Positions 41,001-43,729 are shown, numbered from the stretch's first letter. The stretch is 64,000 nt of DNA from an uncultured Treponema sp. (GCA_947178095.1 CAMWWZ010000001.1:34145-98144); one strand, 5' to 3'. The notes: generated by a model not told the origin, from the letters alone. Program-made: numbers and translations.

Positions 41001-43729
41001 AAGCCGGCTATACCGTTGACTCGCAAATTCATCGAAACGCGATCGTAGATTCCATTGCATTCAAGACGTACCGGGAATTGCAAACCGTGCATCGCTACGA
41101 ATTCTTCGAGCCGGAATATATTCCATCAATTTCTTTTTCATCGTCAGAATATCAAAGCCAAAGCGAATATTTCATCCTGAAAAAAATGGAAGAAATGCAA
41201 AAGGAAATTCAAGTCTGGCAGGAAAAAATATTCGGCACAAGCGATGAAAAAGGAAATTCGAACGACAAAGGCAAACTCGGCGAACACATAGGCGAAGGCC
41301 CTGAATTCAAAAACCCGGAAAATCTCGACTTGTCAAAATCGCTCGACGAAAACATCGCGAAAGAAGGCTCGGGAGAAATGGGAAAAATTCTTGCGGATTT
41401 CCAATGGAATTCGCTAAAGAATTCCCAAGGCTACGCGGAACTTTCGAGGGCAATCTACGACCAAAGAATATTGCCCAACGACGGCGGCTTTCAGCTTCCC
41501 ACAATCCGCGAAGCGTTCGGAATCATCTGCGACATTCTCGGAAACTGCGGAATGGCTTGGATAAAGTATGTCGATGACGTAGTTTTCGGAGCGATGGATT
41601 TGAGCATGGGCTACAAGTCCATCGAAGAAGTCGCAAACCAAGCAATCAGGCAAGGACTGGTCTCCGCCGTATCGAGCGGAGTAAGCGCGGCTTGCAGCAA
41701 AATCTTCGATGCGGCAGGCTCGGCAATAAAGCAAGGCGCGCAACTTCTAGGCGGCGTAAAAAATGCGACCGTTGCATTTTCCAATTCCGTCGCGGCGAAC
41801 TACATAAATTCGTTCGACTTCATGCGCGGCACGATGAATTGGGATCAGGCGAATTCATTTTGGACCGACGCTTCGAACTATACGAGCATCGCGGGCGCAC
41901 TCGTAGGAAGCGCGCTCGGCGAACTCAACAACGTGGACGGAAACCACAACCGCCTCAACAACGCCGTATTCAAGGACATCGAAAAAATGAATTCCACAAT
42001 CGGAAGTTTAAGCGGCGCAGCTTTGAACTATATCCTTACCGGAAACGTTTCGTTCAACTTGGCGGACATAAACGGAGTCGGACTTTTCGAAGTGGGAATA
42101 AAAGACGGAGAATTTTCGGCGGGCATCGGCAGAGGCGGCACACAGCTATCACTTCTCAGCGCGAATATGTTCATGTCAATGGACGGGGACGGCAACTCGC
42201 GCCTGAAAACTTCGATGAACGACAATTTCATAAAAGTGCTCGTCGAAGGCGCAAAGAGCGCGAGCAAAGTTTCACAGCTAAAAAAGGGCGACTACGAAAA
42301 CGAACTTGTCAACCTCAACGCGGCAAACCATTTGGCATGGAGCGGAACAAAAAACAACATCGAACTTGCAAAAAAGCTTTTCAATTCCGAAATCGAATTC
42401 GCCTTTGAAGATTTAGACAATCCTGACACGCTCGCGACAACGAAAGACGGAAAAATAATTCTCGACTCAAAACTCTTGCAAGGCGACAAGGACAGCCATG
42501 CGATGCTCGCCGCTTTGCTCGCAAGCCAAAACGCTCTAAATTCCACAGTCTCCTACGAAAACTTGCGGAAAAAGGACGGAAGCGAATACACGGCGGAAGC
42601 AATTGAAAAAATGCGGACGGACAGCACGCTAGAATCCATGAAAGACATAGCGACGGCGTTCCTCGCCGCCCATGATTTGCTCGGCTCCGAATACGGCTCG
42701 GCTGCGAACGCGAAGAACATTGCGGAAATCGCAGCGGTCTATAAAGAAGGCGGCGAAACAGGCCTTTTCGTGCTATACGGAAACATTCTCGAAGAATCGA
42801 AAAAGAAAATGGAAGAAGAAGCCGCCGCCGCGAGCAATGCCGAAGCAGAAAAAAGCACGACAACGACAATTACGCTCGACCATGTCATGCGATTGGATTG
42901 GCACCAAAACGACAAAGGCAACGACGATGTTTTCCTTGGAACGAACATGCCCAACGAAGAATACGTGATAGCAGCAAAAGAAAGCATTGCCGACAAATAC
43001 GCTTCCCAAAAACTCAGCAAGATGAATCTAGTGGGAAAAACAGAGTTTGAAGTCGAAAGCTTAAGAAACAAATTTAAAGAGGAGGCTCTCGCGGACGAAG
43101 AATTACTAAAAGCAAATGGTTACGATCCATCCTTCAAACACGATGAATTCAGGCTTGGCTCTTTCGGATGCACATTGTCAACCGTTGCGTACATCGTATA
43201 TTCCATAACAGGCAAAGTTTATTCTCTAAAAGATGCGAACGAAATCCTTAAAGCAAAAGGCGTGTTCAAAGGTTCAAAAGACAAGCATGGCGTATCGGAA
43301 AATGGCGATCTCAACGCATATGACGGATCATATGCAAAAGCCATAAACGAACTCGCAAAAGAAGCCACAAACACACTAGAAGATGTGATTGGAAAAGAAG
43401 TAGAATCGGTAAAAGGAAAGTTGGAAGACAAAAATTCGAAAGAAGGATATAAAAATATTTTCAATCGCATAATCGCCACAACCAGCAACACGTCCGAAAA
43501 ATATTTCATACACCTGCGAGTATACAACGGCGGTCATTCGGTGCTGTTCAAATCCATGACCTACGGAAACGACTGGGAATCTGCTACGGTCGGCGTTTAC
43601 AATCCATGGAATAGCACAGGCAAACTTGGCAGCACTTCATACGGCATAACAGAAATCGCCCGCGCGGACTTCTACAAACTCACCGCCGCAGGAAAAGAAA
43701 TATACAACAAAAGGAACATAGAAAGCTAA
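35036..43729 (+). CDS. Giant secreted protein (2897 aa): coiled-coil body, hydrophobic hairpin, C-terminal papain/C39-like domain
   Basis: Uninterrupted 8.7-kb ORF with AGGAGG RBS and TTG start; signal peptide; TM segment ~aa 1482-1528; C-terminal GC...GH...YNPW. Confidence 0.85.
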   Translation: MKEFFQRCAAFLMLAVYSLSIANAAQIAQDFQAQRKTLDAYLERALVQGDREKFEKIAALGIGAAIAEWEQDSMEKKIEGYDEWISQRNALSEDLESYKDESLAKWILKKQNEEREEIQRNALYNVLHEAALAFAYTKSDGSTTRIVSKDFIDEAKAQWSEISMAIVQEYIEAWNGENMSADERELFGLKISEAEKAALVLEAKESSITFLQGEYISIETAITNSLVSALLYDQDSLKKLSDSEAASTIARKLSESIESQTSESMAHLFNEMETELEVASADSLSGAKEQEWLGKFERELAAGLEKWNEAERSFLAARVEWEQNSENIFINDNKKWTEAYNELGKRKSDWAAKIENQIQEGTKKWEEKHSLLQDQIRNYFEEFQSKLAIEIQQKREIVSAGIETYNQCREILAMAKSGISNSYAKWCEKYNGLYSYWKTEDSSCDADNSDIKSIAGKISEWKNIFIKTALDIIERYLNHAKSSAEEIDESEIEELYKEISSLSEKSSFDEISKIAKKVAQQKNKIQSQLNDSQEEINKEIWQVFEGCASLSKDYEEISAWLELFEQYEKEVSASLSQIYENAGGGIAQSGFDEIENEMAKLSALESYWESREKIALGVYEYSKDYTSGIESADTTAKNLEEALKKYEEKKAEYQRMLGALSELQAEVKEAQNKYDSAAEDASSALEHIEEQRQIYDELYERYKATSDSKAFGEISALNEKLQKIELCGAEYEKLLLSYYFEIQDEDKKSFEAEIENIKKNFQDGKEETVTESMIDLKQNDILGELEGEAFDLSEYVGLSVKIFSTSEIENFSITLKAIVESDEIDVAALEAILPDLEKFDGKNVNPLKVEIENYHNLNNEIEIAGENEIEIENADENEEADFSERKTQILENIRAHIMAIKKTCQDEIAFRNAVLLLLESENAEEIEEIFAKNPELEERCEPYKKWSFALKTKTQRKARKAVSDIIQNVPRGNLEEFFAALDEADAELDSAGLCILALYKKAIACKSACDTNRATLAKNISETFQKEFSINEYDFHEKIFESFFDEKDLRCEKISNPDYSLLNTMESSKSHIEKMERFYLDSFDMQKTISELQVAMENQKNKILDAQKEYEQKIEALRGESSGSALNLYIAKCEEYNAALKRTQDFYAQTEDARREYRAAEEIYFYAQNEYLHKNIDADLEENLALARQKLSDVHTALEALSEIKAERDSCEKPSESFQEFDEYKASMLQYYRARVLSYEYNKELAAQKERLRQAQLAENDALESLVCEYDAKNEAIPSIVKDFVKVEESVDSDGSTSYSFKLNSIEKISQMSEDEISQNERLLSDYYTNTVATETEQECTKAKLGAIAFLESLDEKPYSIEDLALALLYLKMQGSDEQKSRWLFSSEDPTIYENYPIGDIPEKVHSMEIWKSFKNGRMTALKDAYEKVVNKGGEQDIINYILYSQTNINTSLDLYERQREELTKRGFENLIKDVESQVDTLVAAAIIQMVIISTFTAIFAIPIFGAWAAVPLAAATIILVSLSIAAAKLSDVKDDIIGLKKSREEILAEHNEKQETLISAWQNARELRKAEEENLKILTGGQNDSKKEKLTWEEFDAALKKFCASSESADYSYYENIHTAEGKNLRELFDTISDDTILTVDNAITKIESVLKSESEQKSAALDSYVQERLKQKEEESEEFNSLLYAGADENPDYKNKLKSAAKSAWGKDSFDQAKYRSDMISFYCEELLQDLPAHFGDSTESYFLEIFEALEEPYIQHIFEAANAQLEIKRDYFSILKMSMQEEEASWQDKMLVAAQIGFEEWEKAEEKINAAYNSWQKEWLDEYDRKNHEWDENYTAFLLDKQEWINQSYLQAGVQEFQAKDYANISQMKRATKMGDSISEYVALLYDTQKFSRLETFAEKILSFADNSGYDLGIFAFDKIDSSALKNLDEIYAKREKVESDMKNAAAKYQAQMLEAQAKEKLEAHLYEIQNQNEQVEDWELDLVRKAGYTVDSQIHRNAIVDSIAFKTYRELQTVHRYEFFEPEYIPSISFSSSEYQSQSEYFILKKMEEMQKEIQVWQEKIFGTSDEKGNSNDKGKLGEHIGEGPEFKNPENLDLSKSLDENIAKEGSGEMGKILADFQWNSLKNSQGYAELSRAIYDQRILPNDGGFQLPTIREAFGIICDILGNCGMAWIKYVDDVVFGAMDLSMGYKSIEEVANQAIRQGLVSAVSSGVSAACSKIFDAAGSAIKQGAQLLGGVKNATVAFSNSVAANYINSFDFMRGTMNWDQANSFWTDASNYTSIAGALVGSALGELNNVDGNHNRLNNAVFKDIEKMNSTIGSLSGAALNYILTGNVSFNLADINGVGLFEVGIKDGEFSAGIGRGGTQLSLLSANMFMSMDGDGNSRLKTSMNDNFIKVLVEGAKSASKVSQLKKGDYENELVNLNAANHLAWSGTKNNIELAKKLFNSEIEFAFEDLDNPDTLATTKDGKIILDSKLLQGDKDSHAMLAALLASQNALNSTVSYENLRKKDGSEYTAEAIEKMRTDSTLESMKDIATAFLAAHDLLGSEYGSAANAKNIAEIAAVYKEGGETGLFVLYGNILEESKKKMEEEAAAASNAEAEKSTTTTITLDHVMRLDWHQNDKGNDDVFLGTNMPNEEYVIAAKESIADKYASQKLSKMNLVGKTEFEVESLRNKFKEEALADEELLKANGYDPSFKHDEFRLGSFGCTLSTVAYIVYSITGKVYSLKDANEILKAKGVFKGSKDKHGVSENGDLNAYDGSYAKAINELAKEATNTLEDVIGKEVESVKGKLEDKNSKEGYKNIFNRIIATTSNTSEKYFIHLRVYNGGHSVLFKSMTYGNDWESATVGVYNPWNSTGKLGSTSYGITEIARADFYKLTAAGKEIYNKRNIES

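Follow-up and report, generated by a model that had tools for sequence, protein, structure and literature searches.

The question raised by this locus is what the last domain of a giant protein does, and whether that domain was grafted onto its gene or belongs to it by descent. The gene lies in a stretch of 64,000 nucleotides (GCA_947178095.1, CAMWWZ010000001.1:34145-98144; called the window here) from an uncultured Treponema sp. known from gut metagenomes, and an earlier note on this DNA had taken the C-terminal end of its product, the tip, for a C39-like or NlpC-type effector module recombined onto the gene body. The analysis described here retains the papain-like character of the tip and abandons the foreign origin. 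Our preferred reading, to which we give a probability of about 0.6, is that the tip is a predicted clan CA thiol hydrolase, an effector-type peptidase or amidase that would act outside the cytoplasm on a target in the cell envelope.

Fold and predicted catalytic residues of the tip

The gene and the parts of the tip are as follows, in window coordinates and with residue numbers of the giant protein.

35036..43729, + strand: giant gene, an open reading frame of 2897 amino acids with the papain-like domain at its C-terminal end
42863..43726, + strand: C-terminal papain-like Cys-His-Asn domain, residues 2610-2897 (AlphaFold2 model, Foldseek and family alignments)
42899..42913, + strand: WHQND motif, residues 2622-2626, 88 residues N-terminal of Cys2712 in confidently modelled coil
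42953..43114, + strand: helical hairpin between the WxQN motif and Cys2712, residues 2640-2693, the most variable part of the tip
43169..43171, + strand: Cys2712, predicted nucleophile at a helix N-terminus, invariant in 29 of 29 family members
43358..43459, + strand: hypervariable surface loop, residues 2775-2808, with lower model confidence and indels among orthologues
43535..43537, + strand: His2834, predicted general base opening a beta-strand, invariant in 29 of 29 family members
43601..43603, + strand: Asn2856, predicted third triad residue, closing the strand that follows and 22 residues past His2834

WHQND, Cys2712 within LGSFGCTLSTVAY (residues 2707-2719), His2834 within VYNGGHSVL (residues 2829-2837) and Asn2856 within VYNPW (residues 2854-2858) were each found where the earlier note had placed them. 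The domain is C-terminal, as had been claimed, and its true start was moved slightly upstream of 42890, to about residue 2610 (nucleotide 42863), where a modelled beta-strand, TITL, is part of the domain. The family alignment comprised 29 members with 24-82% identity to the tip of the window. Position 2856 was Asn or Asp in all of them, and this conservation of Cys, His and Asn/Asp over 29 members therefore shows that the motifs are not due to chance. Cys2712 is the only cysteine in the tip. The Trp, Gln (Gln2624) and Asn of WHQND were invariant across eight full-length homologues; Gln2624 is a putative oxyanion residue, the place that a Gln takes in papain. Variation was concentrated elsewhere, in the helical hairpin, which carried insertions of up to about 45 residues in orthologues, in the loop after the second core helix, in the loop of residues 2775-2808 and in the loop directly past Asn2856, and left the catalytic motifs unaffected.

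An AlphaFold2 model of the tip was produced from the family alignment with high confidence (predicted local distance difference test, 94.3; predicted TM-score, 0.90). Secondary structure assignment by DSSP showed a helix opening at the Cys (model residue 108), a strand opening at the His (230) and a neighbouring strand closing just before the Asn (252). The top matches of this model in a Foldseek search of the PDB were all clan CA cysteine proteases, namely IdeS (E 3.8e-4, probability 0.96), IdeC, Mac-1, T-Mac C0362 and UfSP, and the best match among the viral models of BFVD was an AvrRpt2-like papain protease (probability 0.98). A second model, of the core only, again gave clan CA neighbours, with weaker E-values. 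The modelled fold and the alignment together support a clan CA papain-like domain in which an ordered Cys-His-Asn(Asp) set is kept across the family, and in this respect the papain-like reading of the earlier note was upheld.

Its assignment to C39 or NlpC was not. No Pfam, NCBIfam, PHROG or PADLOC model reached its cut-off on the tip, and profile searches of PDB sequences with two family alignments gave nothing meaningful, and C66 chains were absent up to E 10. C39_2 (PF13529) scored 10.7-16.4 bits against a cut-off of 24 (E 0.014-0.78) and matched one of the 29 members, the window's own sequence; no C39 structure was among the 50 best Foldseek matches in the PDB for either model. None of the 29 members matched NlpC/P60 (PF00877) or CHAP (PF05257) in Pfam at E up to 5, and Tse1/Tae1 appeared in Foldseek with a probability of only 0.06-0.09. 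The tip shares with C39 and C39_2 (PF03412/PF13529) the order of catalytic residues, and its GC-x-L-x-T-x-x-Y-I-x-Y, with G-x-x-x-S-L-x-E-A after it, is similar to the Cys helix of C39. Unlike those families, it has no Gln close to the Cys and no context of an ABC (ATP-binding cassette) exporter or a double-glycine substrate. A C39 peptidase was also disfavoured by the surroundings of the domain, which closes either a giant envelope protein or a protein of the RHS type and has tRNA and housekeeping genes as neighbours. The tip is best described as a papain-like family without a curated Pfam or NCBIfam model, not as a demonstrated member of C39 or NlpC. The family is rare: a search with the last 299 residues against 1.84 billion representative proteins gave 26 clusters, and in most of these the domain stands at the C-terminus of proteins of 2400-3200 residues. 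A search for related loci with the single protein gave one locus, in a Treponema metagenome-assembled genome.

The same domain at the end of RHS proteins

Evidence for the effector-type nature of the tip came from its distribution. The domain was found in 5 of 37 genomes of the genus, counting that of the window, and, in a core profile search, in 7 of 401 genomes of the phylum; the giant gene is accordingly an accessory one, patchily distributed. Four of the seven phylum genomes fall within the same family but in a different genus (Treponema, T. denticola-like), and in those four the domain forms the C-terminus of RHS-repeat proteins (PF05593, 24.1 bits against a cut-off of 22). The RHS shell ends in ...YYGARYLDPKYSRWLSGDPA...NNPVKYVDPNGE, with its ...YVDPNGE motif, and the domain comes immediately next, in the position of the variable toxin. 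Alignment of the family profile with the RHS C-terminus by hhalign gave a probability of 95% and E 2e-8, with the Cys and the His aligned. The aligned part of the RHS toxin and the tip stops short of the WxQN motif, and a match of VQEN to WHQND, drawn by eye, is a lead only; the helical hairpin of residues 2640-2693 is missing in the RHS-borne versions. The domain is therefore found at the extreme C-terminus of two different scaffolds, the giant coiled-coil protein and RHS proteins. The earlier note's idea of an effector held at the level of the family, since RHS/YD proteins of T. denticola-like treponemes have the same domain as their C-terminal toxin.

One T. denticola-type locus, L042 (G340:C1:2036000-2050000), carries two RHS genes in tandem.

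8847-13313, 8248-8850, 4825-8247, 3679-4641, 1915-2991 and 502-1623, - strand, in coordinates of that locus: open reading frames of L042

The first RHS gene has an HExxH-type tip and is followed by a gene for an exported protein of 200 residues. The second has the Cys-His-Asn tip and is followed by three paralogous lipoprotein genes (320, 358 and 373 residues), with a gene for a 124-residue membrane protein after the first of the three. The three lipoproteins have a common C-terminal motif, GNW(I/L)E...REI(K/E)YY, and are a candidate poly-immunity array; one of them gave a weak match to RHS_repeat. The same pattern was seen in another genome, where a lipoprotein gene lies next to an orphan toxin fragment. 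Polymorphic toxin loci with their immunity genes have the same layout as these RHS loci (Zhang et al. 2012, PMC3482391). As candidate immunity proteins, the lipoproteins point, by virtue of their position, to action of the toxin in the periplasm.

Giant exported proteins with a papain-like toxin head have precedents. The Tox-PL1, Tox-PL-2, Tox-PL3, Tox-PLC39 and Tox-NlpC/P60 domains (PMC3482391) are likewise papain-like, with Cys, His and Asp/Asn, and likewise close exported proteins of very large size, and the domain studied here is, like that group, also borne by RHS proteins past the cleavage motif, with small exported proteins encoded downstream. It differs from the group in several ways. 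No family member matches the Pfam Tox-PL models (Tox-PLC39 and Tox-PL3 lie outside this direct comparison); the carrier, with a Sec signal, a coiled coil of about 2500 residues and one hairpin, is not a described trafficking scaffold; and at the giant gene there is no linked immunity gene, and the tip is fixed, not polymorphic, among full-length orthologues.

The giant protein, its descent and its variable tip

Outside the tip, three features of the giant protein bear on where the tip would act.

35036..35107, + strand: Sec-type signal peptide, residues 1-24 (...SLSIANA|AQ), as predicted from the translation
39467..39628, + strand: sole internal hydrophobic stretch, residues 1478-1531, about 54 residues (Kyte-Doolittle scan), kept in homologues
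42788..42862, + strand: low-complexity acidic/Ala/Thr linker, residues 2585-2609, tethering the tip, of differing length and sequence among orthologues

The open reading frame starts with TTG directly downstream of an AAGGAGG Shine-Dalgarno sequence, and the equivalent N-terminus in three orthologues, MKELF, agrees with this start. No lipobox Cys is present at the cleavage site of the signal peptide. The body, scanned as three thirds, had nothing above cut-off in Pfam, NCBIfam, PHROG or PADLOC. The predicted layout is a signal peptide, about 2500 residues of coiled coil with one hairpin, a linker and a hydrolase-like head. The stretch of residues 1478-1531 would be long enough for a two-helix membrane hairpin, in which case both halves of the protein would be outside the cytoplasm; together with the signal peptide, this single hairpin would place the tip extracytoplasmically. 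Metatranscriptome contigs of a relative about 95% identical span the giant gene, which is weak evidence of transcription given the possibility of DNA carry-over.

The tip had been said to differ from the gene body in composition, and it does. For this comparison the tip was taken as residues 2641-2897 and set against body windows of equal size (n=66). The G+C content at third codon positions (GC3) was 0.444 in the tip against a body mean of 0.525, with two of the 66 body windows equally low; the A content was 0.385 against 0.349; and CTA, TTA and ATA made up 5.4% of the codons of the tip against 2.6%, which equals the maximum among the windows. The chi-square of synonymous codon use against the rest of the gene was 66 for the tip and 24-48 for other blocks. 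This is a genuine shift, though a modest one that depends on 14 codons. The drop in GC3 was common to all four orthologues examined (0.41-0.47 against 0.53-0.55), and the offset has therefore long belonged to the domain and does not mark a recent import. The tip was also present in all seven close homologues, which have 73-96% overall identity except for one at 35%, and three distant full-length homologues (P0009, P0021 and P0032; 27-34% identity) are collinear from the N-terminus to the tip; every full-length collinear homologue, down to 27% identity, carries it. Conservation of the tip in all full-length homologues, one half of what the earlier note had named as evidence against a foreign graft, was thus found, while the other half, a host-like composition, was not. 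The tip is the ancestral head of this protein family rather than a recent graft.

Other C-terminal ends were found only in more distant relatives that share just the module of residues 1950-2500 (L032-L035; G013, G049, G045, G047; other Treponematales); the full-length collinear homologues all keep the tip. In two or three of these different C-termini, M23-like motifs (HxxxD...HxH) were seen by eye, with Pfam M23 at E 2e-4, below cut-off, and PDB searches sub-threshold. These relatives keep a LAHE(A/S)(Y/R)R(D/N)G segment, at which the window protein has a degenerate HAMLAALLASQNA; in G047, four giant-protein paralogues lie within 20 kb.

The tip is much more variable than the rest of the gene. 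Nucleotide divergence from the closest relative, P0002, was 2.6% in the body and 13.8% in the tip (Fisher p 8e-37), a 5.4-fold difference that was likewise seen at third codon positions (p 1e-12), and the DNA 3' of the stop codon returned to about 99% identity. Identity within the tip was patchy, at 75-97% in windows of 25 codons. At informative sites the window paired with P0002 in the body; in residues 2725-2774 and 2850-2874, P0002 paired with P0003, and in residues 2775-2799 the window paired with P0003, so that successive segments give discordant genealogies. Recombination in the tip is thus an exchange among alleles of the same domain, in which short tracts reshuffle the surface loops and the helical hairpin. 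The ratio of nonsynonymous to synonymous substitution rates (dN/dS) was 0.40-0.75 for the tip against 0.16-0.21 for the body in all pairs, and at the protein level the loops and hairpin evolve 2-4 times faster than the body. The loop of residues 2775-2808 is subject to indel polymorphism in natural populations; in a metatranscriptome contig of the relative about 95% identical, 98 nucleotides at window positions 43356-43455 were exchanged for 50 other letters.

The chromosomal neighbourhood is stable. The order comFB, giant gene, tRNA-Val, cytidylyltransferase-like gene, HEAT-repeat gene, maf and rpsB was kept in three orthologous contigs; in the window a hypothetical gene stands between the cytidylyltransferase-like and HEAT-repeat genes, and two tRNA genes lie upstream of the giant gene along with comFB.

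43728..43782, + strand: copy of a dispersed intergenic repeat of about 50 nucleotides, starting inside the TAA stop codon of the giant gene
43862..43935, - strand: tRNA-Val(TAC), in the position expected of an immunity gene, kept in orthologous contigs
44002..44520, - strand: cytidylyltransferase-like gene, convergent with the giant gene

No small co-directional open reading frame was found 3' of the giant gene, where the tRNA-Val and the convergent gene lie instead, in agreement with the earlier claim that no immunity gene follows. At distant orthologue loci an amino-acid ABC importer lies downstream. The tRNA genes that flank the giant gene are all on the - strand: Gly-CCC and Arg-TCT upstream (34642-34791), Val-TAC downstream, and Arg-CCG (46065-46140). 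This bracket is kept in orthologous contigs, and there is therefore no obvious integration scar. The repeat that overlaps the stop codon, correctly noted before, gave 36 matches in the genome including this copy (at least 35 copies in 2.7 Mb). It resembles an element of the repetitive extragenic palindromic (REP) or miniature inverted-repeat transposable element (MITE) type, and a second copy, at 13313-13432 on the - strand, is interrupted by an insertion of about 70 nucleotides with a palindrome of its own, CATACCTCGACGCAAGCATCGAGGTATG. Between the giant gene and tRNA-Val lie two perfect hairpins, AAAACCCGACGC-AAA-GCGTCGGGTTTT at 43778-43806 and AAAAAGGACTTCC-GAAA-GGAAGTCCTTTTT at 43833-43860. 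They are probably terminators and possibly bidirectional; a pattern scan called no canonical terminator 3' of the giant gene, and the first hairpin has only four trailing T.

Proposed role and competing explanations

In the mechanism that we propose, Cys2712, at the N-terminus of its helix, would be the nucleophile and His2834 the general base, with Asn2856 (Asp in many relatives) orienting the His. The tip would hang by its flexible low-complexity linker from a Sec-exported protein probably anchored in the inner membrane through the one hairpin, and would act outside the cytoplasm. The bond cut would be a peptide bond in a target of the cell envelope, either the stem peptide of peptidoglycan or a protein of the envelope, and this target would probably belong to other bacteria. 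That last part, a role in conflict with other bacteria, is favoured because of the use of the domain as an RHS toxin, the patchy distribution and the mosaic, fast-evolving surface; we advance it tentatively, at a little short of even odds.

Several results weigh against this proposal. The TM-scores to solved structures are low (0.29-0.46), and what is assigned is therefore a fold class, clan CA, and no family. The dN/dS of the tip is below 1 throughout and is therefore no demonstration of positive selection. A linked immunity gene was found at none of seven loci, this one and six orthologous ones; the lipoproteins are cast as immunity proteins by their position after the RHS toxins, and a search of the window's genome, which is 94% complete, gave no homologue of the RHS-locus lipoprotein. 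The giant protein has no known secretion partner, and an anchor in the inner membrane would keep the tip in the producer's own periplasm, which suits a housekeeping wall enzyme better than a weapon.

Such an enzyme is the main rival. The giant protein would then be an oversized analogue of PcsB, CwlO, RipC or EnvC that cuts the cell's own peptidoglycan, for instance in division or around the periplasmic flagella, with its helical parts serving as a regulatory latch. PcsB (CHAP), CwlO and RipC (NlpC/P60) and EnvC (LytM) have the same succession of signal peptide, long coiled coil and C-terminal head of Cys-peptidase or M23 type. Two head types possibly alternate among the relatives of the giant protein too, those with the 1950-2500 module ending in M23-like segments (Pfam M23 E 2e-4, sub-threshold), and an alternation of CHAP/NlpC with LytM is known among FtsEX-controlled hydrolases (PMC6355983, PMC7668044). 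The conserved synteny with housekeeping genes, the missing immunity gene and secretion partner and the probable inner-membrane anchor would also be accounted for. We nevertheless consider this reading unlikely. The giant protein is 7-10 times larger than those hydrolases and has a membrane hairpin, and its gene is a patchy accessory and not a core gene, present in 5 of the 37 genomes of the genus, which would be unexpected of a core function in the wall. The mosaicism and rapid evolution of the tip also weigh against this reading. The tip has no CHAP or NlpC/P60 signature in Pfam, its Foldseek probability for Tse1/Tae1 is below 0.1, and its Cys-His spacing of 122 residues with an intervening helical lobe is nearer to protease-type papain folds than to NlpC/P60, a compact domain of about 110-130 residues with a short Cys-His spacing. 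The M23 assignment of the alternative C-termini is itself below threshold.

A released protease directed at immune or mucosal proteins of the host gut, in the manner of IdeS/Mac-1 or T-Mac, is less probable still. It would suit the gut habitat of the organism, and IdeS, IdeC, Mac-1 and T-Mac are the best structural neighbours of the tip. IdeS/Mac-1 (MEROPS C66) and T-Mac (the C-terminal domain of TDE0362) have the Cys at a helix N-terminus, a papain fold of two lobes whose cleft is flanked by variable loops, as in the tip, and a similar spacing from His to Asp/Asn (IdeS His262-Asp284, 22; T-Mac His561-Asn585, 24; tip, 22) (PMC11833123); variable loops around a conserved core would also fit antigenic or substrate-driven diversification. 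There is, on the other side, no detectable C66 sequence similarity in Pfam or PDB profile searches, the TM-scores are about 0.3, the Cys-His spacing is 149-168 in those proteases against 122 in the tip, and they have a Lys at the oxyanion site where the tip has its conserved upstream WxQN motif. The carriers differ as well, and the compartments probably do: the giant protein has no lipobox, outer-membrane or surface export signal, and its predicted topology leaves the tip in the periplasm. The other carrier of the domain is an RHS protein with lipoprotein genes downstream, typical of inter-bacterial toxins.

Self-cleavage has very little in its favour. The tip would in that case cut the giant polypeptide to which it belongs, perhaps at the linker, for processing or release. 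Such a peptidase would fit the flexible low-complexity segment directly upstream of the tip, and in toxin polypeptides a papain-like domain can have the function of a releasing peptidase (Zhang et al. 2012, PMC3482391). The tip, however, is the last domain and has no downstream cargo to free, its RHS versions hold the toxin position past the RHS self-cleavage motif, and a sole catalytic domain at the extreme C-terminus is read as the toxin in that same work (PMC3482391). The least credible reading is that of the earlier note, a C39/NlpC-type module recently recombined onto the gene body, to which the compositional shift at about nucleotide 43000, the jump in divergence from the closest relative at about residue 2641 and the marginal C39_2 match lend some colour, and which is contradicted by the same domain ending every full-length homologue down to 27-33% identity, by the low GC3 common to four of four orthologues, by the kept synteny, by imported tracts that are alleles of the same domain and by a C39_2 score below cut-off in one of 29 members.

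The giant protein shows an unusual combination of a fixed head, allelic mosaicism and no linked immunity gene. One broader idea, which we regard as doubtful, is that the giant proteins are an undescribed effector scaffold of spirochaetes with interchangeable heads, papain-like here and M23-like in distant relatives, that would need neither a dedicated secretion system nor linked immunity, and whose papain-like head would belong to a new clan CA family found in the RHS toxins of Treponema as well. The producer might then be protected by the chemistry of the target, for example ornithine-type as against mDAP-type (meso-diaminopimelate) peptidoglycan, or by spatial restraint, instead of by an immunity protein.

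For the treponemes, the result defines a rare papain-like family that is deployed in two ways, as the toxin tip of RHS proteins and as the head of an envelope protein of about 2900 residues without recognisable domains. It offers an entry point into a wholly unannotated giant protein of gut spirochaetes in the form of one Cys, one His and a separately expressible domain. A body under strong purifying selection with a head that is an allelic mosaic is a pattern that usually marks molecules engaged in conflict between organisms. With peptidoglycan or a protein of the envelope as the target, the RHS toxin would form, together with the lipoprotein encoded downstream, a new toxin-immunity family.

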